Part shown: piece by piece, positions 7,062 through 64,000 of the stretch
Position numbering within the stretch: the stretch's first letter is position 1
Layout: each line of letters starts with the position of its first letter
Assembly (NCBI GenBank): GCA_023380475.1
Contig: JAMCRD010000006.1
Span: 2,546-66,545, forward strand
Source: Patescibacteria group bacterium
GTDB lineage: Bacteria > Patescibacteriota > Minisyncoccia > UBA6257 > Colwellbacteraceae
Direction of reading: 5' to 3'
DNA: 64,000 nt
Made by a program: the position numbers and the translations under genes
Notes under the pieces: generated by a model
What the model was told of the DNA's origin: nothing
The model's input: only the letters and a program-made list of their open reading frames with translations
Databases searched by the model: none

Positions 7062-7162
7062 ATAAGTTTTCTTTGCTTTTCTTCGACCTTTGCTTTTGTT
7101 TGCCCCGAGCAAAAGGATTGACTAACCTACTAGGCTCCCCTGCTCGAAAACTCTAGGAATAT

Positions 7163-25954: not shown

Positions 25955-25987
25955 ATAGGCACCATACTAATCTCTTGTATGGTGCCG

Positions 25988-26062
25988 CGGGAGGGAATCG
26001 GACCCCCGACGCCAGCCTCTTCAGGGCTGCGCTCTACCACTGAGCTACCGCGGCGATAACAA
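25988..26062 (-). tRNA. tRNA-Phe(GAA)
   Basis: Minus strand: acceptor GCCGCGG/CCGCGGC, D arm GCTCAGTGGTAGAGC, anticodon loop CTGAAGA, CCA encoded. Confidence 0.8.
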
Positions 26063-26130
26063 AGACATGCTACACAAGATCAATCCATTCTTCAATGAAG
26101 GAGAGCAGATTGCTACATAGACAATAACTA

Positions 26131-27687
26131 TTATAGACTTGTAAAGTTCAACGGACTGCCCCCGTAGTTCAATGGATAGAACAGATCCGTCCTAAGGATA
26201 AAATAGGAGTTCGATTCTCTTCGGGGGCACCAAGTGAGAAATTGCAAATCCCCAGAAGTCGCCGCAGACGGCTGGGCGGCCAGTTCGTATTGTAATTTCG
26301 GGGCAAACGAGAATTCGCGGTTTCGCAAAATATGGTTCGAGCCGATGTTTTTGAGAAATGTTGTCATTGCAATTCCGTTATTCTCTTGAAGCAGTTTTGA
26401 GGCCTGATTGAGTGATAGAACGAACTCTCTCGCTGGTTCGAGCCACGACAGCCCTTTGTCCGCGAAATCGGATATTTTCTCCTGCAATCCGATTTTCCGA
26501 GAAAGCAGCTGTTCCTTCTTCGCGGCGTATTCGGTCTGGAACAGGGCGTCGGCAAGATAGGCATCGAGGAGTTTGGACAGCTTCGCCTCCACGCGGGCAA
26601 CTTCGTTTTTCAGAGTATCAATCTGCGCTCGCGCCTCCTCCCTTGCCTTGTCCCGTTCCGCCTCTAAGAGAGCTAACGCTTTCTCGGTATCATCGTCCGA
26701 CAAAGAAATTTTTTGCAGGAACGATTGTATATGCTCCGTCACTATCTCCTCGCGGAGATAGTGCTTTTCTTGGCACACGCCGCCTTTCTTTGTGCAACGA
26801 TAATAAGCATGGCCTTTCTGCATTTCGGCGGTGATGGAGCTTCCGCACGAGGCGCATTTCATAAGGCCGAGAAAAGCGAAATCATGCCGCTTCGTCTCAA
26901 TCGTCTTGCCGCGCTTTGCGCGCACCTCTTGGCAGAGGTCAAAAAGTTTCTTCGGGACAAGAGGTTCGTGGCGTCCCTCGTACAGTTCTCCGCGATACCG
27001 CATAAGGCCGTAATAGAAGGGGTTGGTTAAAATCTTCTGGATATTGCTAAGCGCAATCTCCTTGCCGAGGTTGCCTTTCAATCCTTGCTCTCGGCACCAA
27101 TCTACGAGGTCATGGAGCGTATAGCTTCCTATGGCGTAAAGCGCGAACAGCTTGCGGACAAGCGGGGCTTTCACGGGGTCAACATCAATCCCTCGCGTCC
27201 TCGGGTTGTTCAAGTAGCCAATCGGTGCCCAGCTCGGCCATACGCCGTTCCGTATCTTCTGCCGCAAGCCACGCTTTACGTTCTCCCGCAGGTTGTCCAC
27301 GAAGTATTTTGACTGCCCGAAGGCAATGTTGAGCATAAAGAGGCCTTGTGGTGTCGGCTCAAACCAGAACGTAGGGAACTTGAGGGACTTAATCAGGCCT
27401 CGGTCAATCATGTGGATGACCCGCCCGCCGTCCACGGAATTGCGGGCGAGGCGATCTGGGTGCCACGAGAGGATGCCCTGTGCCTTGCCGCGTTCCACGA
27501 ATGACAACATTTCAGCGAACTTAATACGGCCGGGTTCTTTGGCGGTCTTTGCCTCCTCAAAGGAAGCGACAATTTCAAGTTTTTCTTTGGCGGCAAATTC
27601 CCGAAGCTCCACCAGTTGAGCTTCTATGGACAGCACCTGCCCGTCGTCTTCTTCCGTTGATTTGCGAGCGTAGATTATGTATTTCAT
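26131..27687 (-). CDS. large serine recombinase (resolvase catalytic domain, recombinase domain, zinc ribbon, coiled coil)
   Basis: N-terminal YARKST..Q catalytic serine motif and ILSWHPDRLARN; CASCGS...CTKKGGVC zinc ribbon; coiled-coil region; last 28 codons are antisense of tRNA-Arg, so true stop is likely upstream. Confidence 0.85.
   Translation of the reverse strand: MKYIIYARKSTEEDDGQVLSIEAQLVELREFAAKEKLEIVASFEEAKTAKEPGRIKFAEMLSFVERGKAQGILSWHPDRLARNSVDGGRVIHMIDRGLIKSLKFPTFWFEPTPQGLFMLNIAFGQSKYFVDNLRENVKRGLRQKIRNGVWPSWAPIGYLNNPRTRGIDVDPVKAPLVRKLFALYAIGSYTLHDLVDWCREQGLKGNLGKEIALSNIQKILTNPFYYGLMRYRGELYEGRHEPLVPKKLFDLCQEVRAKRGKTIETKRHDFAFLGLMKCASCGSSITAEMQKGHAYYRCTKKGGVCQEKHYLREEIVTEHIQSFLQKISLSDDDTEKALALLEAERDKAREEARAQIDTLKNEVARVEAKLSKLLDAYLADALFQTEYAAKKEQLLSRKIGLQEKISDFADKGLSWLEPAREFVLSLNQASKLLQENNGIAMTTFLKNIGSNHILRNREFSFAPKLQYELAAQPSAATSGDLQFLTWCPRRESNSYFILRTDLFYPLNYGGSPLNFTSL
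26148..26222 (+). tRNA. tRNA-Arg(CCT)
   Basis: Acceptor GCCCCCG/CGGGGGC, anticodon loop GTCCTAA (stem has one G-A mismatch), T loop AGTTCGATTCT, CCA encoded; its last 6 nt (GCACCA) begin repeat X. Confidence 0.65.
26217..26315. repeat. inverted repeat X (99 bp), left copy
   Basis: Exact reverse complement of 27714-27812; spans tRNA-Arg 3' end and encodes residues RNREF...LTWC of recombinase ORF. Confidence 0.9.
26316..26339. repeat. inverted repeat Y (24 bp), left copy
   Basis: Exact reverse complement of 27923-27946; contiguous with X on the left, but separated from X' by Z on the right. Confidence 0.8.
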
Positions 27688-27691
27688 CGTG

Positions 27692-27711
27692 TTAAAAATT
27701 TTCTTTTCCCA
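27692..27711. repeat. 20-bp inverted repeat, left copy (ttaaaaattttcttttccca)
   Basis: Exact reverse complement of 27947-27966; forms the leader 4 nt upstream of the recombinase start codon. Confidence 0.85.
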
Positions 27712-27713
27712 GT

Positions 27714-27812
27714 CGAAACCGCGAATTCTCGTTTGCCCCGAAATTACAATACGAACTGGCCGCCCAGCCGTCTGCGGCGACTTCTGGGGATTTGCAATTT
27801 CTCACTTGGTGC
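27714..27812. repeat. inverted repeat X' (99 bp), right copy
   Basis: Exact reverse complement of 26217-26315; in-frame on + strand it re-encodes the same 33-aa peptide. Confidence 0.9.
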
Positions 27813-27897
27813 AGGACAATTGAGATAGCTCGAACGGTTTTTGACACCCCCACCGAGGCTAAATCTGAAACGCCCGACGTGGCGGAGCCGCACCGAT
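27809..27897. repeat. inverted repeat Z (89 bp)
   Basis: Reverse complement of 28659-28747 with one mismatch; overlaps X' by 4 nt (GTGC). Confidence 0.85.
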
Positions 27898-27922
27898 AAA
27901 GACCGCCAAAGAACCCGTTCCT

Positions 27923-27946
27923 AACATCGGCTCGAACCATATTTTG
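27923..27946. repeat. inverted repeat Y' (24 bp)
   Basis: Exact reverse complement of 26316-26339. Confidence 0.8.
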
Positions 27947-27966
27947 TGGGAAAAGAAAATTTTTAA
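27947..27966. repeat. 20-bp inverted repeat, right copy (tgggaaaagaaaatttttaa)
   Basis: Forms the leader 4 nt upstream of ATG 27971 of the small AT-rich gene; identical to the recombinase leader. Confidence 0.85.
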
Positions 27967-27970
27967 TCAT

Positions 27971-28141
27971 ATGAAAAAAGCATTATTAATTATTTGTGAG
28001 TTTATAGCGACGGTAGTTATTTTCTTATTGATTTATAAATTTTTTAATTTATCAACAGCTTTACCAATATGGATTGTAATCGTCATCATTTTGATAAAAA
28101 CGACAATTAGCCACGACGGTAAAGACAAAGACGGGGCATAG
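27971..28141 (+). CDS. small two-TM membrane protein (56 aa)
   Basis: ATG at 27971 (track ORF begins at a TTG inside Y'); very AT-rich coding sequence unlike the surrounding genome. Confidence 0.4.
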   Translation: MKKALLIICEFIATVVIFLLIYKFFNLSTALPIWIVIVIILIKTTISHDGKDKDGA

Positions 28142-28203
28142 GATTTTGAATATTGGTCAATCTGTTCCGCACCAATAAAGACACAAAGAAATAATTTTTA
28201 ACC

Positions 28204-28626
28204 ATGAAAAGATTAAAAAGTTTACTAGTGGTTTGGCTAGAAATTTTGGTCGGCGGCCTGATTTTAATTTTTGTGCCAGACATCAGATGGTTTCTGTTTT
28301 ATCTTTTAGTGATTGTTCTTATGACTTCGGTTATGCGAGCGGATTATCTGCGAAAGGTCGTCAGGGTGTTCCAAGTGGAGAATGGGGTTAATCTCGCTAG
28401 CATAGCCAAGAAACTCAACATATCGGAAGCAGAGATTCAGAAGTCCAGAGATGACCTTAGCGACAGCTTGCTGGACGACCAAAGAAAATCTTTGCATAAG
28501 GATATGGAAGAGCTTGGAATTTCCAGCCCCGAACGCTTTTACAGAAATCCAGTGGACGGCCTATCAGATACCGAAAGGGGTAAGAAATTCATGGATAAAG
28601 TTTTTAAGGACTTCGGGGATAACTAA
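28204..28626 (+). CDS. membrane protein with HTH-like segment
   Basis: 140 aa; two N-terminal TM helices, then VNLASIAKKLNISEAEIQKS resembling a helix-turn-helix; AT-rich. Confidence 0.4.
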   Translation: MKRLKSLLVVWLEILVGGLILIFVPDIRWFLFYLLVIVLMTSVMRADYLRKVVRVFQVENGVNLASIAKKLNISEAEIQKSRDDLSDSLLDDQRKSLHKDMEELGISSPERFYRNPVDGLSDTERGKKFMDKVFKDFGDN

Positions 28627-28658
28627 AATTTGCCGCCAAAGAAAAACTTGAAATTGTC

Positions 28659-28747
28659 ATCGGTGCGGCTCCGCCGCGTCGGGCGTTTCAGATTTAGCCT
28701 CGGTGGGGGTGTCAAAAACCGTTCGAGCTATCTCAATTGTCCTGCAC
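28659..28747. repeat. inverted repeat Z' (89 bp)
   Basis: Reverse complement of 27809-27897 with one mismatch; begins 33 nt after stop of 28204-28626. Confidence 0.85.
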
Positions 28748-28782
28748 TACTAATAATCTGCTAATTGAGCATATTATTAGTA
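28748..28782. repeat. 10-bp perfect palindrome TACTAATAAT/ATTATTAGTA with 15-nt spacer
   Basis: Seen directly; sits between Z' and tRNA-Arg(TCT). Confidence 0.6.
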
Positions 28783-28786
28783 GACC

Positions 28787-28858
28787 GTCCCCATAGTTCA
28801 ACGGATAGAACATCTCCCTTCTAAGGAGATGATTGAGGTTCGATTCCTCATGGGGACA
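28787..28858 (+). tRNA. tRNA-Arg(TCT)
   Basis: Acceptor GTCCCCA/TGGGGAC, anticodon stem TCTCC/GGAGA with loop CTTCTAA, T loop GGTTCGATTCC. Confidence 0.8.
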
Positions 28859-28859
28859 C

Positions 28860-28930
28860 CGGGCTGTAGTGTAATGGTAGCACGAGTCTTTTGGGAAGAT
28901 TTAGTCCGAGTTCGAATCTCGGCAGCCCGA
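28860..28930 (+). tRNA. tRNA-Pro(TGG)
   Basis: Acceptor CGGGCTG/CAGCCCG, anticodon loop TTTGGGA with G37, T loop AGTTCGAATCT; starts 2 nt after tRNA-Arg. Confidence 0.75.
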
Positions 28931-28954
28931 CAAAATAAAGTAGACCCATCTAGG

Positions 28955-28990
28955 TTAATAAAAGCCCACCTTTATCTATTTGGTGGGCTT
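28955..28990 (-). terminator. rho-independent terminator of the Cys-rich protein gene
   Basis: Minus-strand hairpin AAGCCCACC-loop-GGTGGGCTT followed by UUUUAUUAA. Confidence 0.5.
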
Positions 28991-28995
28991 ACTGC

Positions 28996-29331
28996 CTATG
29001 CTTCTTGAACGCCGTGAATGTCGGCTGACCTTTCGAGTATAACCCCAGGCAATTTCTTTGAGGTAATTACAGTCTTGGTCTGACCTTCACTAGACGTTAA
29101 CACTTCGCCTTTTAGCCCCAGATATATACCTTCTGCACAGCCCCAGCAAAACAGATCGCCGCAATCATAACCCTGAGCACCCCTATGTTGAGTGTGGTAG
29201 CTAAAACGGTTCCCTGACCTGCTGGTGTGGTAGCTGCACATGTTGATACCACAACCGCTGCACCTATCGAGGGCCCTATTATCACAACCCTTAACCTGGC
29301 ATTTGCCGTCTCTTGGCTCTGGAAGTGACAT
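28996..29331 (-). CDS. cysteine-rich small protein (zinc-ribbon-like)
   Basis: 111 aa with 12 Cys in CxxC-rich clusters (CQVKGC, CSGCGINMC, CGDLFCWGC). Confidence 0.4.
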   Translation of the reverse strand: MSLPEPRDGKCQVKGCDNRALDRCSGCGINMCSYHTSRSGNRFSYHTQHRGAQGYDCGDLFCWGCAEGIYLGLKGEVLTSSEGQTKTVITSKKLPGVILERSADIHGVQEA

Positions 29332-29445
29332 ATGCGATATGTATTTAAAAAAACAGGAAGATTGCCCGTGAAGGCAACCCGCTCAATTTTTCTTGAACTG
29401 GATTACCTCGACTAGTAATCTTACCTAGAAAATACTATAAAATTG

Positions 29446-30075
29446 CTATTTTGTCAATGAGTCAAATTGATTCATCAACGATAAATACTGCTTATTTAGG
29501 GAGTTTACCGATTGCGCATCGCTATTCAGTTGATCGACTATCTTGTTTAATTCTGCATTAAGAGATGCGGTGCTGGTAGCTCCGCCAGTCTGACTTATGT
29601 ACCCCACCTTAAGCTGATCCAGCAACTTGTATATTAGATCGCTGTAATCAACTAGATTTTCTATTATCTGGTACTCCTTGCCTATTGCTTGGACTCCGAT
29701 TTGTTCCGCTGATTCCGGTCTTATTTGATACAGGTCGTTGGCCATCGTGCCAAGTTGGGTCGACAGGATTGAAGCGTTATCACGCTCCTGGTTATTGCTA
29801 TTTATTTCCTGGATTGCGATATCCAGGGCTTTGTTGTAATCACCGGCGTTGTAGGCCGTACTTATATCGTTAAGGTTAGTGATTGAGGTGTCCGCTAAGC
29901 TGACGATGGCGTCGGAGGTTTGTGCAGCCTGAGCCCTGGTAGTTGTGAACTCCTTAGGCACGTAAGGCATACTGTTGTTTAGCGCCTCTGCGCCGTAAAT
30001 TATCCCTATCACTAACAAGATGGCTAAAACCAGTATTATTACTGCGTTCCATCGAGCCGAAGAGCTGTAATACAT
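29446..30075 (-). CDS. membrane-anchored coiled-coil protein
   Basis: 209 aa; N-terminal TM (AVIILVLAILLVIGIIYG), remainder helical and Asn/Gln/Ser-rich. Confidence 0.4.
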   Translation of the reverse strand: MYYSSSARWNAVIILVLAILLVIGIIYGAEALNNSMPYVPKEFTTTRAQAAQTSDAIVSLADTSITNLNDISTAYNAGDYNKALDIAIQEINSNNQERDNASILSTQLGTMANDLYQIRPESAEQIGVQAIGKEYQIIENLVDYSDLIYKLLDQLKVGYISQTGGATSTASLNAELNKIVDQLNSDAQSVNSLNKQYLSLMNQFDSLTK

Positions 30076-30263
30076 CTAAACGGTTATACCCTATTTCTTA
30101 GCGATACACAATTATGTACCTACGACTGGTAAATTCCTATATAGTTTGAACCACTATCGGTATAGAACATAGGCATGTACAGTGGTACATCTACAAAAGG
30201 AAAATACTCGGGCTACGCAGGAAAAGAAAAAAACTACAGAGAGATTGCTAAGGCGCTTGATGG

Positions 30264-30674
30264 TTGACTAAACGTAATATTGCAAGAGTCAAAGCCAGAG
30301 AAGATTTTGATCTATCATATACTCCGCTATTCGCCGTGGGTTTAGCAATATATTGGGGAGAGGGCGACAGCAAGCCAAAGAATCCTTTGAGAATATCCAA
30401 CACAGACCCACGGATGATAAAGTTGTACGTCAGGTTTCTCAGAGAAATTATGAAAGTCCCTGACGATAAAATCCGCCTAGGCCTCATACTGTATCCAGAC
30501 CTCGATGATAGAGCAAGTAAGAATTACTGGTCTAAGATAACTAACTTGAAATCAACAATTTTTGTCAAATCTCAGTTTTCAAAGGGCGTCATCCTACAAA
30601 AAACTGCGCCACGGCGTGTGTATGGTTATAGTAAGTGGGTACGAGTACAAGGAGAGGGTTCTAGAATGGATTGA
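30264..30674 (+). CDS. hypothetical protein
   Basis: 136-aa ORF with no recognised family; contains LAIYWGEGDS segment loosely reminiscent of a LAGLIDADG motif. Confidence 0.3.
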   Translation: MTKRNIARVKAREDFDLSYTPLFAVGLAIYWGEGDSKPKNPLRISNTDPRMIKLYVRFLREIMKVPDDKIRLGLILYPDLDDRASKNYWSKITNLKSTIFVKSQFSKGVILQKTAPRRVYGYSKWVRVQGEGSRMD

Positions 30675-30709
30675 TATTTTGTCAAAACGACTTACAATAA
30701 TGTGAGATC

Positions 30710-30780
30710 GCGGGTATCGTATAGCGGTATTACATCTGGTTGCCAATCAGATGACAGGGGTTCGACTCCCCTTACCCGCT
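30710..30780 (+). tRNA. tRNA-Gly(GCC)
   Basis: Acceptor GCGGGTA/TACCCGC, anticodon stem TCTGG/TCAGA with loop TTGCCAA, T loop GGTTCGACTCC; no encoded CCA. Confidence 0.75.
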
Positions 30781-32262
30781 CAAGGTTATTTCTTCTTCAA
30801 CGCCTATATTTTTTATAAAGTCCGCGTCGTGAGATATAACTATCAGCGCGCCTCTGAAATTAGATAGAGCGCTTTCAATTTTTTCGATACTGTCTAGATC
30901 TAAATTATTGGTCGGTTCATCTAAGACAAGGAGTTGCGGCGGTTTTTCTCCAGATAAGATACATGCCAGTGCGGCACGCATCTTTTCCCCGCCGCTTAGT
31001 ACATCGACTTTCTTTATAATATCGCTGTCTCTAAACAAAAATCTGGCGAGCCACTTCCTGGATGCTTCGTTATCAAGCCCAGATATGCGCTCCATGTTGT
31101 TTAGAAGGGTCGCATCCCTAGATAGCCTTACAACATCCTGATCAAGATATGCCACTCTATCTATACCAAGCACGACCCTACCTACCACTGGATTTATTTC
31201 TTTCAAAATTATCTTTACCAGCGTGGTTTTCCCTGAACCGTTCGGCCCGCTTATGGACACCCTTACCGGGCCATAAAGATCAAGATTAAACTTTCTCAAT
31301 ATAGGCTTCGTACCGTAAGAGAAACTCACGTCTTTCAGTGTCGAAACAAGTTTGCCGCTAGGGACTTCTGTTCCGGAAATATCCACTTTTATGCTATTTT
31401 CCGGCGGGATCCTGGCCACAGCTTCCTCCAATGCACGTTTGGCATTGTTCACTCTAATAATATGAGTTAGGTGCAGTTTGGAACTCGTTTTCTCGCTGGT
31501 TTCTTTCATATGACCAAGCTCCAATCTGGACATCCCCAACTTGCCCTTCACCGCCCGTCCACGTCTAACCCTAACTCGCTGTCTTTCCAACATAGCTTCA
31601 GCCTGTTGCTCAGCGAGCTTAAACTTTTCACGCTTTACGGTTACATCCCTAGCAGCTGCTGCGCTCTCCGAATTCTTAATCTCTCTGTATGCAGAGTAGT
31701 TGCCACCGTAAAGCCTTAACCCATTTTCTGATAATTCAAGAATTCTATCCACTAAATTGAGCAGCTGTCGGTCGTGACTAACTACCAGCACGCCGCCACG
31801 CCAGTTCTCTACCAATTTGTAGATCACCTCGCGCGAAGCGCGATCCAGATTGTTGGTAGGCTCATCCAGTATTAGGAACTTCGGTTGCGATGCTATCAGG
31901 CTAGCCAGGACGACTTTCACTCTTTCACCGCCACTTAGGTTCCCAAGTGCGCGATTGGGTTCGATGTGTTTTATACCGAGTTCGGGGAACTTCCCCAAAC
32001 CATTTGCGCCAGCTACATCCAACACCTTCCTCGAAAGATCAACGTGCATATCTTGCGGCAGATAAGCTGTGCGAACCAACCTCTCGATCTTGCCTCTACT
32101 GGGTTCGATTTCGCCGACAAGCAACTTCAGAAAAGTAGTTTTACCCACACCGTTCTTGCCGACCAGGCCTGTTTTCTCACTGTCAAAGCTTGCAGTTATA
32201 TCTCTAAGGATGTAACCCGAACCCGCATCGAATGATATGTTTTTAGCTACTATGTCTGCCAT
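30772..32262 (-). CDS. ABC-F family ATPase (tandem ABC domains, no TM domain)
   Basis: Two Walker A sites (GKNGVGKTT, GPNGSGKTT), two signature motifs (LSGGERVK, LSGGEKMR), charged linker between them. Confidence 0.8.
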   Translation of the reverse strand: MADIVAKNISFDAGSGYILRDITASFDSEKTGLVGKNGVGKTTFLKLLVGEIEPSRGKIERLVRTAYLPQDMHVDLSRKVLDVAGANGLGKFPELGIKHIEPNRALGNLSGGERVKVVLASLIASQPKFLILDEPTNNLDRASREVIYKLVENWRGGVLVVSHDRQLLNLVDRILELSENGLRLYGGNYSAYREIKNSESAAAARDVTVKREKFKLAEQQAEAMLERQRVRVRRGRAVKGKLGMSRLELGHMKETSEKTSSKLHLTHIIRVNNAKRALEEAVARIPPENSIKVDISGTEVPSGKLVSTLKDVSFSYGTKPILRKFNLDLYGPVRVSISGPNGSGKTTLVKIILKEINPVVGRVVLGIDRVAYLDQDVVRLSRDATLLNNMERISGLDNEASRKWLARFLFRDSDIIKKVDVLSGGEKMRAALACILSGEKPPQLLVLDEPTNNLDLDSIEKIESALSNFRGALIVISHDADFIKNIGVEEEITLSG

Positions 32263-42486: not shown

Positions 42487-43164
42487 ATGTCGGATGTATA
42501 CAAGAAAGTACTTATCTGGACGGTACTTACTATAGCCGTTTTAGCAACAATCACATTGGTCATACTCGGCGTAATGCAACCGGCATCTTCAACTAATCAG
42601 GATTTTGCGGCTACTACAGCTCCCGCGATAACTTCGACAGATCACGTCGAAGGTAGTTCAAACGCTAAGGTGTCAGTGATCGAATACGGAGATTTCCAAT
42701 GCCCAGCCTGCGGAGATTTTTATCCGATTGTTAAACAAATGATCACAAACTACGACAGTAAAATAAAGTTTGCATTTAGAAATTTCCCACTGCCGCAGCA
42801 CCCCGACGCCCAAATAGCGGCTCAAGCCGCAGAAGCGGCTGGCCTGCAAGGGGAGTATTGGCAGATGAATAATCTGCTGTACGAAAAACAAAATGAATGG
42901 ACGATAGCGTCACCATCAATCGTAGTAAGTCAATTCTTCGACAGCTACGCTTCATCATTAGGATTAAATGTTAATAAATTTAACGTCGACATAAATTCGA
43001 CTGAAGTGCTCAACAAGATAAAGGATGATGTTGCCGGAGCAAACTCCGCGGCCGTAAACCATACGCCGACTTTTTTCATAAACCTGAAACAGATCCCCAA
43101 CCCAGACAGCTATGGCCAATTCAAATCAACCATTGATCAAGCCTTATCGGCCGCGGGGGCTTAG
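42487..43164 (+). CDS. DsbA-like thiol:disulfide oxidoreductase, membrane-anchored
   Basis: N-terminal TM; thioredoxin-fold CPAC active site (GDFQCPACGDFYP). Confidence 0.7.
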   Translation: MSDVYKKVLIWTVLTIAVLATITLVILGVMQPASSTNQDFAATTAPAITSTDHVEGSSNAKVSVIEYGDFQCPACGDFYPIVKQMITNYDSKIKFAFRNFPLPQHPDAQIAAQAAEAAGLQGEYWQMNNLLYEKQNEWTIASPSIVVSQFFDSYASSLGLNVNKFNVDINSTEVLNKIKDDVAGANSAAVNHTPTFFINLKQIPNPDSYGQFKSTIDQALSAAGA

Positions 43165-43588
43165 TTTATTGCTCTTGTTAATCGTCGCCCTGAGTTTTCT
43201 GGGGTTTGCTGACGCGACTTATCTCACCGCGGATCACTACCTAAGACTACCCCTGCCGTGCACCACCGCTGGGGGATGTGAAACTGTTTTAACTAGCCGC
43301 TACGCCATGGTAGGGCCAATCCCCCTGGCGGCCATCGGCATCTTGTACTATCTAGCCATACTATTCTTGGCCATGCTGGCCTACACATCTAATCGCGGGC
43401 AGCCGAGAGCCGTAAAACTGGTCCTAGGGATAGTCGTTGCCGGCCTGGTTGCTTCTTTGTTTCTGTTTTATCTGCAGGTATTCGTCATCCACTCTCTGTG
43501 CACGTATTGTCTTGGTTCAGCCATGACTACTTTCATATTGGCTGTGTTAAGCGTCCTGGCACATAGATTATCGGTAAGATATAGTTAA
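43112..43588 (+). CDS. vitamin K epoxide reductase (VKOR)/DsbB-like membrane protein
   Basis: Four or five TM helices with loop cysteines (CTTAGGC) and TM CxxC (CTYC); annotated start overlaps DsbA-like gene by 53 nt, so start uncertain. Confidence 0.65.
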   Translation: MANSNQPLIKPYRPRGLSLLLLLIVALSFLGFADATYLTADHYLRLPLPCTTAGGCETVLTSRYAMVGPIPLAAIGILYYLAILFLAMLAYTSNRGQPRAVKLVLGIVVAGLVASLFLFYLQVFVIHSLCTYCLGSAMTTFILAVLSVLAHRLSVRYS

Positions 43589-59075: not shown

Positions 59076-59106
59076 GATATAATTAGGTATAAGATATAAT
59101 TAGGTA
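59076..59106. repeat. tandem direct repeat 2 x GATATAATTAGGTA
   Basis: Seen directly in the xer-to-59136 intergenic region; 17-bp period. Confidence 0.5.
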
Positions 59107-59135
59107 AAGGTCGATATCGTAAAAACAAAACTATA

Positions 59136-59687
59136 ATGAGGAAATACCAGATACCTTTGGCAATAATATCTGTAGTTGCTATCACGGCCTTTGCTGTTGT
59201 AGGCAGTGGTATCGCTTCCGCCGACGATAACGGCAACGGCGTCGGCAGCGTAGTGAGAAATTCAGCTGCGAATGTGGTAGGCGAAACAGTGAGCGCCTCG
59301 GAGACGGAAGGCAATGGCAACTCCAATTTAGGGCTCGGCGGCAGTTCCTTAGAGATAGGAGGCAGTGGCAACGTGACATTAAACGGTGGCAAGTTAACCG
59401 CCGTTTCTGGAGACAATTTGGCTGTAAGTGTTTTTGGTCTTAGTGTAAACGTTTCGTTGGCATCCACTACCAACTATGTAGGTGCAACGACTAGTTCCGC
59501 AGTCACTTCTGCCAATGTCGGTGATACGATTGATCTGACTGGTGCAATTGATAGCTCGACTGGCGTTATAACAGCACGGACGTTCCGGGATGAGACGCTT
59601 CAGCAACAGAACGTGGCGAGTATCCAAGCGCAGATCCAGAAGTTACTACAACTGTTACAGCAATTGCGAACTCAAGCTGGGATGTAG
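59136..59687 (+). CDS. secreted Gly/Ser/Asn-rich protein
   Basis: Signal peptide (MRKYQIPLAIISVVAITAFAVVGSGIASA); repetitive G/S/N/V-rich body; Gln-rich C-terminus. Confidence 0.5.
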   Translation: MRKYQIPLAIISVVAITAFAVVGSGIASADDNGNGVGSVVRNSAANVVGETVSASETEGNGNSNLGLGGSSLEIGGSGNVTLNGGKLTAVSGDNLAVSVFGLSVNVSLASTTNYVGATTSSAVTSANVGDTIDLTGAIDSSTGVITARTFRDETLQQQNVASIQAQIQKLLQLLQQLRTQAGM

Positions 59688-60530: not shown

Positions 60531-61196
60531 ATGCGAAAAGCATTACAGTCAGCGCGAAGAGTAGTACAATCATTCCTCAAGGCTCTATTTCCAGGGTTCA
60601 CAGATAAACGCTTCTGGGGATCTGTTAAGATCACGTACATCTTTGTGTATCTTCCCATCGGCATCCTACTGGTGTTGCTGAATGGATTTTTCTCAGCCAT
60701 ATTTCTGATTTATGCCGCAGTCGGTGTTGCGACAATTTTGGTGGGCGCTAGGTTAAGTTGCACAGACGAGACAATCAAAACATCCCGCTCTCAGGAAACG
60801 ACGAAGTGGGTGATAGCAATCCTTATTGCACTAGCGATACTTGGTTCCGTAAGAGGAGCATTCTCATTCGTCTGCGAGAACGTACAGGCAAATGCGTATC
60901 CTGAAGGGATAACCTTAGGATGGAATCGCAACTGCGTATCATTTGAACTCAACGGCGGCGAAATGTCGCCTTGGATATATGCTCCACTGCATTCATACTA
61001 TATCTTCACGTCATACGATCATAAGCCATTCACGGTATTCTACGGCGATGGATCCCATTATCACCTTGGAGTAAATCAGAACCTTGATTTTGGCACCAGC
61101 ACATCCGACCACTTCAGATTTATGCCTGACGGAAACGGCACGGAGATCGTGATAGCACTGACAAGCGCGTCGACGCTGACAAATACCCCGAACTGA
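60531..61196 (+). CDS. hypothetical membrane protein
   Basis: 221 aa; two or three TM helices then a soluble domain; overlapping minus-strand ORF 60428-60700 considered spurious. Confidence 0.4.
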   Translation: MRKALQSARRVVQSFLKALFPGFTDKRFWGSVKITYIFVYLPIGILLVLLNGFFSAIFLIYAAVGVATILVGARLSCTDETIKTSRSQETTKWVIAILIALAILGSVRGAFSFVCENVQANAYPEGITLGWNRNCVSFELNGGEMSPWIYAPLHSYYIFTSYDHKPFTVFYGDGSHYHLGVNQNLDFGTSTSDHFRFMPDGNGTEIVIALTSASTLTNTPN

Positions 61197-61223
61197 TCGG
61201 GGTATTTATTTTCAGCGACATTT

Positions 61224-61262
61224 AAAGCCACCGGTTGCGGTGGCTTTAAATTGATTATTTTT
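61224..61262 (+). terminator. hairpin followed by T-tract
   Basis: AAAGCCACCG-GTTG-CGGTGGCTTT then AAATTGATTATTTTTTATT. Confidence 0.4.
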
Positions 61263-61269
61263 TATTGCT

Positions 61270-61623
61270 CTACAGAATGCTGCCGACTAAGGTCGGTATG
61301 CTGTAGGCCAGAACGGCGACTATTATGGCAATAATGCCGTACATCAATCTGTTTTTAGCCTCCTTAATCTTCTCTTCATTACCAGCTGCGGTTAAGTACA
61401 CAAATGCAGCCCACAAGAAGAAAAACATAGCAATTATAAAGAAGAGCGAGTAGGCGTAACCCAGTAAGGTATTCAAAATACCAGTAACACCCGAATACCC
61501 ATTAATGTTCACTGGCTGAGGGGTCTGAGTATTAGGATAGTATATGGTCTGGGCCAAGGCCGCCGGCATTGCCGCTACACTTGAAATTATTGACGCAACT
61601 ATTACTCCCAGTTTCTTGTTCAT
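61270..61623 (-). CDS. TrbC/VirB2-like pilin family protein
   Basis: 117 aa; signal peptide ...AMPAALA|QT, then two hydrophobic helices separated by a short charged loop (TAAGNEEKIKEAKNR), the classic VirB2 topology. Confidence 0.55.
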   Translation of the reverse strand: MNKKLGVIVASIISSVAAMPAALAQTIYYPNTQTPQPVNINGYSGVTGILNTLLGYAYSLFFIIAMFFFLWAAFVYLTAAGNEEKIKEAKNRLMYGIIAIIVAVLAYSIPTLVGSIL

Positions 61624-61689
61624 AATCTATAAACGCGGTTTCGACCTTTTATAAGATTCAATCCTTCGACACTAATCTTAATTTGCCAA

Positions 61690-61719
61690 AGTATAACACA
61701 ATTGGGAGCCTGTGTCCAA
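61690..61719 (-). promoter_or_regulatory. sigma-70-like promoter for pilin gene (TTGGAC-18-TGTTATACT)
   Basis: Minus-strand -35 TTGGAC and extended -10 TGtTATACT about 60 nt upstream of ATG 61623. Confidence 0.45.
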
Positions 61720-61762
61720 AAAACAGTTACGCATCAGTGTTGCGACGCACAAACCTGCAATC

Positions 61763-62110
61763 TTATTTTGGGCCCAAAGTAGTTTGTATAACGGAAACCA
61801 ATCCGGCAGCGATCAAAACCAGAGCGTAACCGGCTATGGCCCATAGCACAGTCTTGCGTCCGACAGCAAAATTATCCGGATTGCCTCCGGCGGTGAGCAT
61901 TCTGAACGCTCCGTATAAGACCATTATGATGGCTACCGTAGGGGCAATATACGTCACAAAGTAGTTTGTAATGACATTGACCAACTGGCCGAAGTTGTTT
62001 ATGCCGCTCCCCGCGAGCGGGTTGGAAATCGGCAATGCGCCTTGCGATCCGCCGGGACTACCAGTCCCAGCTTGCGCGTAAACCTTACTTATCAAAAATT
62101 GCATTGTCAT
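61763..62110 (-). CDS. TrbC/VirB2-like pilin family protein (paralog 2)
   Basis: 115 aa; signal-like N-terminus, two TM helices flanking a TAGGNPDNFAVGRK loop. Confidence 0.5.
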   Translation of the reverse strand: MTMQFLISKVYAQAGTGSPGGSQGALPISNPLAGSGINNFGQLVNVITNYFVTYIAPTVAIIMVLYGAFRMLTAGGNPDNFAVGRKTVLWAIAGYALVLIAAGLVSVIQTTLGPK

Positions 62111-62111
62111 T

Positions 62112-62471
62112 TCAAGAACAACTTAGTGCGCTCCAGGGTGCCACCGAGACATTGGCACCAACAATGTTCAGCACGGTGTTTATAATCAGCCATGCACCAA
62201 AGACTATTATAACACCTACCAAGGCTGCGATTATAGCGTCCCGTCCAGTTTTAAGCTTATCCGGTTCGCCGCCGCCAGTCATTATCACAAAGCCTCCATA
62301 GACTATGACGATTGTGGCAATCGGTACGGATATAGTGAGAGCGAAATTCAATACGTTCTGAAATAGTTGCAACAGGCCACACCAACTGTTGGTGTCCTGT
62401 GGGACCAAGGGCCCCCAGAAGCCTATTGTCAGCGCCAACTTCTTACTCTGATGGACCACGTCTTTATTCAT
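62112..62471 (-). CDS. TrbC/VirB2-like pilin family protein (paralog 3)
   Basis: 119 aa; two TM helices flanking a TGGGEPDKLKTGRD loop, paralogous to 61763-62110. Confidence 0.5.
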   Translation of the reverse strand: MNKDVVHQSKKLALTIGFWGPLVPQDTNSWCGLLQLFQNVLNFALTISVPIATIVIVYGGFVIMTGGGEPDKLKTGRDAIIAALVGVIIVFGAWLIINTVLNIVGANVSVAPWSALSCS

Positions 62472-62474
62472 TGT

Positions 62475-63776
62475 TTACTGTCCGGTCCCCAAGCTGTTAA
62501 CTGACGTCTCGGCGACTTGCAACGCTCGGTTCACCGACGCAGATTTATTCAGCACTGATTCTATCATATTGCTAAATATAGTAGAAACGGCATCCGAATC
62601 CGGCTGCACCCAGTCTTCGGCCGTCAAAGCCTGGGAAGCGTATGGCCCAAGGGTGGCGTTGCTTTGATACTGGGCGATAAGCGATCGCAGTGCCGGTGGC
62701 CGGCCGCTTGATGCGGCATAGCTGTCGGCCACACTCTGGTTGGTTGTGACGAAGTTTATGAAATCCCAAGCCTCGGTCGGATACTGGCTCTCCCTCGATA
62801 CCGCCAGCCCCCAATAGTCGGGGTAATTGACTTGGCTGCTTAGACTGAACTGAGGCATAGCTGAAACGCCCAAGTTTATATTTGGATTCTGGGATTTGAT
62901 CTGTGGTATCTGTGAAGCATAACCAAGGAACATCGCACTCTTGCCACTGGCGAAAGAATTTAAGGCAGATCCAGTCGGGTCATACCACGTGTAGTATGTA
63001 CCGCCAGGCACAGCAAACTTGGTGTAAAAAGATAGAGCCGCCTGCCCTTGTTGGCTCGCGAATGTTGCCTGCCCCGTGTTGGGGTCTAGCATCTGCGTAC
63101 CCTCCTGCAAGAAAAGAAGGTTGAGGATGTCAGTCGCGTTAGCCATGCTATTTAACGTACCACCTAAAGCCACTGCCGGTCGGGTAATTATGCCGTAAGT
63201 TTCCTTTCGCGTCTGAAGCACAACTTTTTCAAACTGGCTCCAAGTCGCGGGCGGTACAGCTATGCCGCTTTGATTAAAAATATCACGATTATAAATAAGA
63301 GCCAGCGTATCTATTGATAGAGGCATAGCATAAATATGGCCTCCGTTCACAAAGTCGTTGGTAGCTACTTGGGGGAAAATACTCTCAAAGGTGCTGGCAC
63401 TGATAAGAGAACTCGGGGCCGGTACCACAATATTGTTGTGCTTAGGCAACCAAGAGTTATTAAACATGAAGATATCAGGGCCTTGGCCGGCCGCTAAAGC
63501 GTTTATTAACTTTGACTCGTAGCTAGCCTGATCAAGTTGAGTGTAACTGACGGAGATATTGGGATAGGTTTTCTCAAAAGCCTGAACACTTGGGCCCCAA
63601 ACACTCCCATTATCACCAACGCCCCAGACTGTAAGACTGGCTGATGGACCGCTGCGGCGCAGTCCCGGGATAACACCCAAAAAGACCAGCAGGAAAAACA
63701 AGACAACAAAACCGATTATGCCTATGATTATTTTCTGCTGTTTAGTAAACATCAGCAGTATTGTAACGCTGACCAC
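62475..63776 (-). CDS. ABC transporter extracellular solute-binding protein (family 1, sugar-type)
   Basis: 433 aa; N-terminal TM/signal anchor; MalE-like SBP core; start may be internal Met (MFTKQQK). Confidence 0.7.
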   Translation of the reverse strand: MVSVTILLMFTKQQKIIIGIIGFVVLFFLLVFLGVIPGLRRSGPSASLTVWGVGDNGSVWGPSVQAFEKTYPNISVSYTQLDQASYESKLINALAAGQGPDIFMFNNSWLPKHNNIVVPAPSSLISASTFESIFPQVATNDFVNGGHIYAMPLSIDTLALIYNRDIFNQSGIAVPPATWSQFEKVVLQTRKETYGIITRPAVALGGTLNSMANATDILNLLFLQEGTQMLDPNTGQATFASQQGQAALSFYTKFAVPGGTYYTWYDPTGSALNSFASGKSAMFLGYASQIPQIKSQNPNINLGVSAMPQFSLSSQVNYPDYWGLAVSRESQYPTEAWDFINFVTTNQSVADSYAASSGRPPALRSLIAQYQSNATLGPYASQALTAEDWVQPDSDAVSTIFSNMIESVLNKSASVNRALQVAETSVNSLGTGQ

Positions 63777-63779
63777 ACC

Positions 63780-64000
63780 TTAAATACAGGTGGTGCCGGC
63801 TATCGAATCGCCCGCCGCAACTTTCATAATCCTCACACCCTGGGCGGCGCGTCCTGTTTCTCTTATTGTCGCCAGTTTGGTACGGATAATCTGTCCACGT
63901 GAAGAAGCAGCGAATAATTCCATCTCTTCGGTGACAATGTGTGCTGAGACAACCGCCCCCGTCTTGGGATTAACTTTAGCGGTTAGTATCCCCTGACCAC
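63780..64000 (-). CDS. gyrA: DNA gyrase subunit A, C-terminal fragment (gene continues beyond window)
   Basis: Minus-strand translation ...SRGQIIRTKLATIRETGRAAQGVRIMKVAAGDSIAGTTCI* matches a GyrA/ParC C-terminal beta-pinwheel blade; stop at 63780-63782. Confidence 0.55.
   Translation of the reverse strand, partial: GQGILTAKVNPKTGAVVSAHIVTEEMELFAASSRGQIIRTKLATIRETGRAAQGVRIMKVAAGDSIAGTTCI

Follow-up and report, generated by a model that had tools for sequence, protein, structure and literature searches.

A solute-binding protein gene and three classes of VirB2-like pilin genes form a conserved chromosomal module beside gyrA in Patescibacteria

The window analysed here, a stretch of 64,000 nucleotides (nt) from contig JAMCRD010000006.1 of a Patescibacteria group bacterium (assembly GCA_023380475.1), carried three tandem genes for small VirB2-like pilins on its minus strand, named pil1, pil2 and pil3. 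They were located downstream of a gene for a MalE-type solute-binding protein (SBP), which itself followed the 3' end of gyrA. The features of the locus are given below, with protein lengths in amino acids (aa) and scores against the Pfam family PF18895.

63780-64000, minus strand: 3' end of gyrA (context), a neighbour conserved on the upstream side, known from near-identical contigs
63760-63765, minus strand: -10-like hexamer TACAAT, 7 nt 5' of the SBP ATG, read from the sequence
62475-63752, minus strand: membrane-anchored MalE-type SBP, gene 1 of the module, 425 aa from the ATG at 63752
62112-62471, minus strand: pil3, class-3 pilin, 119 aa, PF18895 39.7 bits, conserved Cys31/Cys118 pair
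61763-62110, minus strand: pil2, class-2 pilin, 115 aa, PF18895 37.0 bits, L-x-NPL motif
61690-61719, minus strand: pil1 promoter, TTGGACA, 17-nt spacer and TG-n-TATACT (extended -10), kept in relatives
61652-61680, minus strand: 5' leader hairpin AAGATTA...AATCTT, a predicted fold with weak to moderate support
61641-61650, minus strand: leader motif AAAAGGTCGA, 18 nt 5' of the pil1 ATG, conserved across species
61270-61623, minus strand: pil1, class-1 pilin, 117 aa, PF18895 48.8 bits, Sec signal peptide ending in A-L-A before Q
61220-61251, no strand assigned: palindromic hairpin of 14 bp between the convergent pil1 and a 221-aa open reading frame (ORF), a likely bidirectional terminator

The three consecutive minus-strand genes of 117, 115 and 119 aa were present exactly as described in the original prediction, and all three are real. 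Proteins identical to all of them were recorded under the NCBI name 'pilin' in the metagenome-assembled genome GCA_023476555.1 ('Patescibacteria group bacterium'), and the precomputed PF18895 annotation of these identical proteins agreed with our own hidden Markov model (HMM) scores. On a strain-level contig, L097 (L numbers denote loci and contigs of relatives throughout), amino acid identity was 85% for pil1 and 79% for pil2, with synonymous sites saturated. The proportions of non-synonymous and synonymous differences (pN/pS) against this contig were 0.077/0.744 for pil1 and 0.115/0.754 for pil2. Strong purifying selection thus acts on pil1 and pil2, the genes for which this comparison was possible. 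The gap between the SBP stop and the pil3 start comprised 3 nt and that between the pil3 stop and the pil2 start 1 nt, suggesting translational coupling of SBP, pil3 and pil2.

Family membership was evaluated with the Pfam gathering scores of PF18895 T4SS_pilin (26.6 bits) and PF04956 TrbC/VirB2 (27.9 bits), and with the cut-off of 40 bits for NCBIfam NF045849. The PF18895 threshold was passed by all three proteins with E values from 7e-13 to 4e-9, which agreed with their prediction as VirB2-like pilin paralogs. An exhaustive profile search retrieved 105,968 cluster representatives of this pilin family at E <= 1e-3. NF045849, the model of the Mbov_0395 pilin-like protein from an integrative and conjugative element (ICE) of Mycoplasma, was passed by pil1 with 42.4 bits. 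Mbov_0395 and the proteins described here are small hairpin proteins of wall-less or monoderm bacteria with small genomes. In contrast to Mbov_0395, the present locus is not an ICE but lies in a chromosomal housekeeping context, and pil2 and pil3 scored only about 21 bits. The 'equivalog' label of NF045849 is therefore not transferable.

Hydropathy plots of each pilin displayed two long hydrophobic helices around a polar loop. To this extent the predicted common topology held, whereas the signal peptide expected in all three proteins was of the classical Sec type in the 117-aa pil1 only (MNKKLGVIVASIISSVAAMPAALA, followed by Q). AlphaFold2 modelled hairpins for the 119-aa protein (helices 30-65 and 70-104) and the 117-aa protein (helices 44-78 and 83-116), with a pLDDT of 83-90 over the hairpins; the model of pil1 consisted of a signal-peptide helix plus the hairpin. 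Between the paralogs, BLASTP identity was 19.5% for pil1 and pil2 and 35% for pil2 and pil3, and pil1 and pil3 gave no alignment. Comparison of the family alignment with the single VirB2 sequence of A. tumefaciens in hhalign yielded a weak match (E 0.0035, probability 9%) with helix 1, loop and helix 2 in register. A tblastn search of pil3 against 72,556 plasmids, which had low power, gave no match. Among the top matches of the family profile were long proteins with 2-17 pilin modules per chain and up to 1,775 aa (P0034-P0183). They could represent genuine poly-pilins or, alternatively, arrays that were read through in gene calling.

The three genes had been described as tandem paralogs. Pil1, pil2 and pil3 represent three ancient, diverged classes that are not interchangeable. 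With class-specific HMMs, pil1 scored 129.2 bits in class 1 versus about 55 and 38 bits in the others, pil2 138.1 bits in class 2 versus 63.8 and 52.4 bits, and pil3 110.9 bits in class 3 versus 77.8 and 63.8 bits. The gene order was fixed. Among 64 loci with at least three pilins, 55 showed SBP, class 3, class 2 and then at least one class 1 gene; class calling based on BLAST gave the fixed order in 49/64. The class order 3-2-1 also recurred in metagenome loci. Each class had its own hallmarks. Class 1 carried a signal peptide with A-x-A before Q and was the sole multiplying class, with one to six copies per locus across species. Class 2 had the most conserved core of the three and carried L-x-NPL. 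Class 3 had two cysteine columns, one shortly ahead of helix 1 and one in the C-terminal tail, each about 80% conserved; a cysteine within the last eight residues was found in 37 of 44 short class-3 proteins. Such a fixed set of three classes is more in keeping with a heteromeric machine than with simple antigenic variation.

The conserved class-3 cysteines make one further gene pair of the window relevant. A DsbA-like thioredoxin gene (42487-43164, plus strand) adjoined a VKOR gene (43112-43588, plus strand), together an extracytoplasmic disulfide-forming pair.

Proteins of the class-3 type were frequently longer than pil3, and 39/83 had an extension of 150-300 residues after the hairpin. In L178 (2195-3310), the hairpin was fused to an SLT lytic transglycosylase domain (E 1.2e-16) directly after the SBP gene. 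The C-terminal match of L051 (8811-9782) to the lysozyme-like family PF18896 SLT_3 was borderline, with 26.6 bits at a cut-off of 27, and this domain was common to 6/80 loci. Fusions of the hairpin to lysozyme-like domains were also observed in L031, L036, L070, L073 and L080, located right after the SBP gene or in the second class-3 position. Other long class-3 proteins, for example those of L028, L046, L049, L052 and L055, had C-terminal extensions without a family match.

The SBP was a full-length member of its fold. It matched PF01547 SBP_bac_1 over residues 57-348 (E 1.4e-31) and PF13416 SBP_bac_8 (E 8.5e-31). Its nearest solved relatives in a PDB profile search, down to E 1e-30, were SBPs for sugars and oligosaccharides (maltose, trehalose, oligosaccharides), and NCBIfam gave weak MalE-type matches only. 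The longest ORF began at a GTG at 63776 (433 aa), while the orthologues and the NCBI call began at the ATG at 63752 (425 aa, MFTKQQK...), so that the GTG is probably not the start. Among the orthologues, 72/79 had an N-terminal transmembrane anchor or signal peptide and 6 a lipobox. The anchor (MxFT+xQKII...) was also considered as unusually conserved or prepilin-like. This was dropped, as the anchor lacked the G-1/E+5 prepilin signature and was less conserved than the rest of the protein (mean top-residue frequency 0.39 versus 0.54).

Linkage of the SBP gene to the pilin genes was found in both directions. In five annotated contexts (L005, L006/L007, L008, L011 and L178; pilins 31-45% identical), SBP_bac_1 immediately preceded the pilin array, and the SBPs from four of these five formed one subfamily with 32-55% identity over the full length. 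In the forward test, the SBP alignment was searched in one genome per species, and the pilin-family HMM was applied to the loci of the best 80 of 492 relatives. Pilin ORFs on the same strand were located downstream of the SBP gene in 78/80 species, and the SBP orthologues directly upstream of arrays were 32-70% identical. The contigs of the two exceptions left 256 and 2 bases after the SBP gene. The reverse test started from class-2 pilins in metagenome contigs with 39 evaluable loci. The SBP gene was directly upstream in 30 of these, or in 31/39 with L124, a near miss of the distance rule. Four non-adjacent loci were inspected. L147 and L162 were real exceptions; L111 and L151 had other genes ahead of the first detected pilin, with upstream sequence too short to decide. 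The relatives with SBP loci were labelled Colwell-, Jorgensen- and Wolfebacteria and Paceibacterota. The SBP-pilin module was also present in complete genomes, among them OZ246418.1, OY970216.1 and OY970382.1.

An SBP gene and gyrA, with no genes of a type IV secretion system (T4SS) nearby, had been predicted as the flanks of the array. These were the neighbours found, but the SBP gene is the conserved first gene of the pilin module and not an unrelated flank. A gyrA-sized cluster was present upstream of the SBP gene in 71/80 species loci, and near-identical contigs of the present locus carried an 814-aa DNA_topoisoIV/DNA_gyraseA_C gene immediately upstream of it. Within 7 kb of the module, the 80 species had no cluster resembling a permease of the ATP-binding cassette (ABC) type; the SBP neighbours were gyrA upstream and pilins downstream. 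The only ABC genes of the window, an ABC-F-type protein and an ABC-2 exporter pair, were 17-30 kb away. The SBP thus shared with those of MalE-type carbohydrate importers the full-length SBP_bac_1/SBP_bac_8 fold and a membrane tether as in monoderms, but differed from them in that a permease or ATPase gene was not adjacent and the next genes always encoded PF18895 hairpin proteins.

The surroundings of the module were examined in a Pfam scan of the window that covered non-overlapping ORFs of at least 110 aa, all but the PNPase, NusA and NYN genes, for which precomputed annotation was available in near-identical contigs. The window contained clpB, ftsK, recA, glyA, folD, truB, rml genes, glycosyltransferases and the DsbA/VKOR pair, as well as an H+-pyrophosphatase (H+-PPase) gene, clpP, tyrS, nusA, pnp, rpsO and xerC. 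Conserved, chromosomal and adjacent to gyrA, the module lies among housekeeping genes, neither in a mobile element nor beside T4SS genes. A different layout was found in two relatives. In L010 (4426-11440), a CHAP/LysM hydrolase gene, a TrbL_3 (VirB6-like) gene and the gene of an unannotated 480-aa protein preceded the pilins, and no SBP gene was present. Its pilins were a weak match of 95 aa plus three confident class-1-type proteins, and the array lay beside nusA and an H+-PPase gene. L179 (4050-11612) was syntenic, with a CHAP/LysM gene, unannotated genes and four pilins, no SBP gene and no TrbL_3 match recorded. In the window, nusA and the H+-PPase gene were only about 8-11 kb from the pilin array. 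Because of this proximity, the SBP layout and the L010/L179 layout may have arisen from a single ancestral region by rearrangement.

Two ORFs adjoining the array had no family match and were both kept in near-identical contigs. One (59136-59687, plus strand) encoded a secreted protein of 183 aa rich in Gly, Ser and Asn and shared the pil1 leader motif. The other (60531-61196, plus strand) encoded the 221-aa membrane protein convergent with pil1, which matched no cluster among the conserved clusters of the 80 species loci.

The promoter predicted for the most downstream gene, pil1, was found as TGGACA-17-TATACT with a TG extension, with 10/12 consensus matches, and was conserved in relatives. 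Promoter-like sites were not more frequent in the region than expected by chance (4 found, 4.8 expected). Support for the pil1 promoter comes from this conservation and not from the site count. Its elements were kept in L097, L013, L014 and L007, in L097 with the synonymous sites of the neighbouring genes saturated. In many species an extended -10 element was located inside the class-2 coding sequence. The conserved class-2 peptide G-Y-A-I-I-L was encoded as ggcTATGCTATAATc at the 3' end of class-2 genes (L025, L033, L057, L071 and others), so that the coding sequence itself contains an extended -10 promoter serving the following pilin gene. For SBP, pil3 and pil2, the TACAAT before the SBP ATG is a possible promoter of the leaderless type.

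The leader motif AAAGGTCG(A/G), of 9-10 nt (AAAGGTCGR), occurred in 57 instances from about 55 species. It was positioned 11-45 nt (mode 16-20; also given as 16-33 nt) 5' of the start of class-1-type pilin ORFs that carry a signal peptide. The loci with the motif before class-1 pilin genes included L005, L007 and L013-L092. Three copies of the exact 9-mer were present in the window, at 61641-61650 (minus strand), 59106-59114 (plus strand) and 7083-7091 (minus strand), all 18-22 nt 5' of genes; these were pil1, the gene of the 183-aa secreted protein and an HU-like gene. A GGAGG Shine-Dalgarno sequence was found in 0/49 window genes. In many of them a hexamer similar to TATAAT preceded the ATG by 6-12 nt (examples are 12375, 42190, 43164, 50401 and 55068), which suggests widespread leaderless mRNAs. 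Since Shine-Dalgarno sequences were absent and many genes appeared leaderless, the leader motif may be a specialised element for translation or stability in genes with high expression. Together, the conserved promoter and the leader motif mark class 1 as the bulk product. Both could help to find other highly expressed genes where Shine-Dalgarno sequences are lacking.

Evidence for RNA structures differed between the sites. The energy of the hairpin in the pil1 leader was no better than that of shuffled sequences (z -0.2). Its stem was kept through a two-sided change in L097 (AAGATC/GATCTT), and different loops were found in L013 and L014. Conservation, not energy, speaks for this hairpin, at a weak to moderate level. 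In Rfam, the pil1 leader had no match beyond a chance CRISPR repeat at E 7.6. A hairpin between pil2 and pil1 was considered as a terminator and dropped, its stability being no better than that of shuffles (z -0.2). The hairpin 3' of pil1 reached -20.5 kcal/mol as minus-strand RNA (z -5.6, 0/200 shuffles as stable), with a T-run on the plus strand, and is likely a bidirectional terminator.

Patescibacteria account for a large part of bacterial diversity and live at the expense of other microbes. Tandem arrays of VirB2-like pilin genes have already been published for them, including pilin genes away from virB4 (Wang 2023, PMC10633639; Quinonero-Coronel 2025, PMC12102498). The latter study used the same Pfam model and reported 441 arrays of 2-11 genes in 383 assemblies. 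VirB2-like pilins were present in 1,948 assemblies containing VirB4, with a pilin near virB4 in only 1,135, and the paralogs were proposed to aid host adaptation (PMC12102498). Identity between array copies was about 25% on average and 54% at most (PMC12102498). A series of pilins is part of the essential T4SS cluster of Southlakia epibionticum ML1 (PMC10633639). According to a 2025 review, these are the first pilins in a monoderm T4SS (PMC12857230). The T4SS-like pilins of Patescibacteria were essential in the one species tested, and the cargo of the system is not known (PMC11665869, PMC12857230). The earlier statement that such arrays recur in episymbiotic Patescibacteria, with their role unresolved, is in line with this literature (PMC10633639, PMC12102498, PMC12857230).

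The three adjacent genes of the window fall under the published array definition of at least two PF18895/PF04956 genes in tandem or one gene apart, and their low identities (19.5% and 35%) are also those of published arrays. The assembly GCA_023476555 was not listed in two supplements of PMC12102498. With the arrays of that study, the present genes share PF18895, the phylum, the tandem arrangement and the low identity between copies. In contrast, that study was anchored on virB4, described no pilin classes or fixed order and treated the paralogs as possible host-adaptation variants. Southlakia epibionticum likewise has several divergent VirB2-like pilins in a monoderm Patescibacteria cell, without a relaxase-type DNA transfer logic. 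Epibiotic growth requires its pilins, which is the sole experimental demonstration of their importance. Its six pilin genes are located inside a T4SS cluster (SEML1_0006-0019), whereas the genes described here are detached from a T4SS and attached to an SBP gene beside gyrA. The lineages also differ, with Southlakia epibionticum belonging to Saccharimonadia and the present relatives being of the Parcubacteria/Paceibacteria type. VirB2 of Agrobacterium and TrbC of RP4 are, like the pilins here, made as precursors of about 120 aa in which a short polar loop separates two hydrophobic helices; they also have a leader, which among the present proteins is clear in pil1 only. They differ in working in diderm hosts, where their genes belong to virB or trb operons next to VirB1, B3 and B4, and in that a dedicated peptidase cyclises them head to tail. 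Class 3, by contrast, might be closed by a disulfide between its two cysteines.

The tandem pilin array itself is known biology; its coupling to an SBP appears to be undescribed. The pairing was mentioned neither in the text of PMC12102498 or two of its supplements, nor in PMC10633639 or PMC12857230, a full-text search retrieved no paper on it, and the sole mention of 'solute' in PMC10633639 was unrelated to it. The same appears to hold for the three fixed classes, the conserved cysteines of class 3 and the leader motif.

On balance, the module probably encodes an SBP-coupled surface filament of the VirB2 type, with pil1 as the putative major subunit and a motor that would be encoded elsewhere. 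SBP, pil3 and pil2 would be made together at a low level and pil1 in bulk from its own extended -10 promoter, with a conserved leader and a strong terminator. Sec would export pil1, which would then insert as a helical hairpin and polymerise into a filament or conduit of the VirB2 type, of which it would be the major subunit. This assignment is based on its signal peptide, the conserved promoter, the leader motif shared with the HU-like gene, the terminator and the restriction of copy expansion to class 1. The single-copy class-3 and class-2 proteins may be minor subunits, initiators or adaptors. In class 3, a disulfide within the Cys pair could link the beginning of helix 1 with the C-terminal tail at the outer face, a covalent closure whose effect would resemble that of the head-to-tail cyclisation known from T-pilin and TrbC. 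The SBP would be the sugar-recognising partner of the filament, serving in adhesion to host glycans or in the capture of host-derived sugar. Assembly would be carried out by a VirB4/VirB6-type machine encoded elsewhere in the genome.

Several results weigh against a VirB2-type filament. No VirB4, VirB6, VirD4, VirB1 or VirB8 family was detected in the scanned ORFs of the 64-kb window, no T4SS family in the annotated sequence on either side (about 10 kb beyond gyrA and about 7.6 kb beyond the opposite end), and no conserved cluster of VirB4 size within 7 kb of the module in 80 species. About ten window ORFs had no family at all, so that very divergent small T4SS components may have escaped detection. 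A phmmer search with VirB1-B11 of the Ti plasmid against 1.58 Mb of loci plus the window gave one spurious P-loop match and, at low power and with no positive control, carries little weight. In the HMM check against PF04956 that the original prediction had proposed, none of the proteins reached the threshold. Pil3 scored 25.8 bits (E 1.2e-5) and pil2 18.9 bits (E 1.8e-3), both below it, and pil1 had no match, while all three passed PF18895; the similarity to TrbC/VirB2 is remote and does not amount to membership. The N-termini of pil2 and pil3 were short and weakly hydrophobic in this lineage, with no convincing signal peptide, and their orthologues in other species carried clear ones. A PDB profile search with the pilin family, of low power, had no pilin among its matches. 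Foldseek ranked the T-pilus 14th (E 6.2) amid unrelated hairpins including ATP synthase subunit c. The proposed structure prediction thus produced the expected hairpins for the 119-aa and 117-aa proteins but could not separate them from unrelated ones, as a helical hairpin has equally weak matches to many proteins of unrelated families. The role proposed for the SBP is drawn purely from gene linkage, and no ABC permease or ATPase gene is adjacent.

The main rival, which we consider rather unlikely, is a T4SS-independent membrane complex in which the hairpins oligomerise to a ring or pore within the cytoplasmic membrane, like those of ATP synthase subunit c, and the tethered SBP delivers sugar, that is, a non-canonical uptake channel and no pilus. 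Such a channel would agree with the strict two-way SBP linkage, with the lack of a T4SS gene near the module in 80 species and of an adjacent ABC permease, and with the fixed single-copy order of classes 3 and 2, which resembles a defined hetero-oligomer. Hairpins of ATP synthase subunit c came up among the fold matches as easily as the T-pilus did, and Patescibacteria must import most building blocks (PMC11665869). However, a class 1 with two to six divergent copies and signals of high expression is more readily understood as a surface subunit that polymerises than as part of a channel with fixed stoichiometry, and the module encodes no energising component. The fusions of hairpin and lysozyme-like domain at the class-3 position are indicative of a passage across the cell wall, and the same pilin family is found inside T4SS clusters elsewhere (L010, L179; PMC10633639). 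Because of these fusions and T4SS-linked contexts, a wall-crossing structure related to T4SS is favoured.

Variation among interchangeable major pilins, diversifying against host defences or host strains by analogy with the virB2 paralogs of Bartonella and Anaplasma (PMC12102498), is distinctly improbable. Identities of only 19.5-35% between the paralogs aligned by BLASTP, the published average of 25% and the class-1 copy number of one to six among species would be expected from it. Its weakness lies in the three classes, which have orthologues in the same order in 55/64 loci and their own motifs (Cys pair, NPL and A-x-A before Q), and in the strong purifying selection between strains. At best it could explain the additional class-1 copies found in other species; the window has one class-1 gene. 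A remnant or cargo of a degraded conjugative element that has lost its T4SS genes was already disfavoured and is very improbable. It would account for the match of pil1 to the NCBIfam model of the pilin-like conjugal transfer protein of the Mycoplasma ICE, the xerC-like integrase genes a few kb away and the serine recombinase elsewhere in the window. Against it, synteny with gyrA, rpsO, pnp and nusA was kept across species with pilins 30-45% identical, the genes are under purifying selection, and promoter and leader are conserved. Moreover, the integrase is of the XerC/D type and a housekeeping neighbour in 21 of the loci.

For the SBP-coupled filament, the strictly conserved pairing of pilins and SBP offers a testable handle and a candidate ligand-recognition component. 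If the genes were merely a pilin operon parked beside an SBP gene, little would be lost, the array being of a known kind. A more far-reaching version of this reading is speculative and, in our judgement, doubtful. The SBP and the three pilin classes might form a self-contained, hitherto undescribed surface organelle in Patescibacteria of the Parcubacteria/Paceibacteria type, a VirB2-type filament for sensing or harvesting sugar. The tethered MalE-like protein might be its integral partner as tip, base or gate, the minor pilins might be closed by disulfides, and some species might have a lysozyme built into it. It might serve in nutrient uptake or host contact, with or without a VirB4 machine.

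Further observations concerned the surroundings of the module and the window. In nine loci (L005 10807-12360, L045 3327-4658 and seven more), a gene for a PMT/GT39-like membrane glycosyltransferase was located directly after the pilin array. It is a candidate for glycosylating pilins or the SBP. The typical SBP-pilin module of Patescibacteria was also present in L078 (DATGZC010000091.1), labelled 'Candidatus Bathyarchaeia archaeon', which is probably a mis-binned contig. In the window, a large serine recombinase gene (26131-27687) was located among six tRNA genes within 25980-30781, together with several ORFs without a family match (28204-28626, 28996-29331 and 29446-30075), and the region 25980-30781 may be an integrated element.

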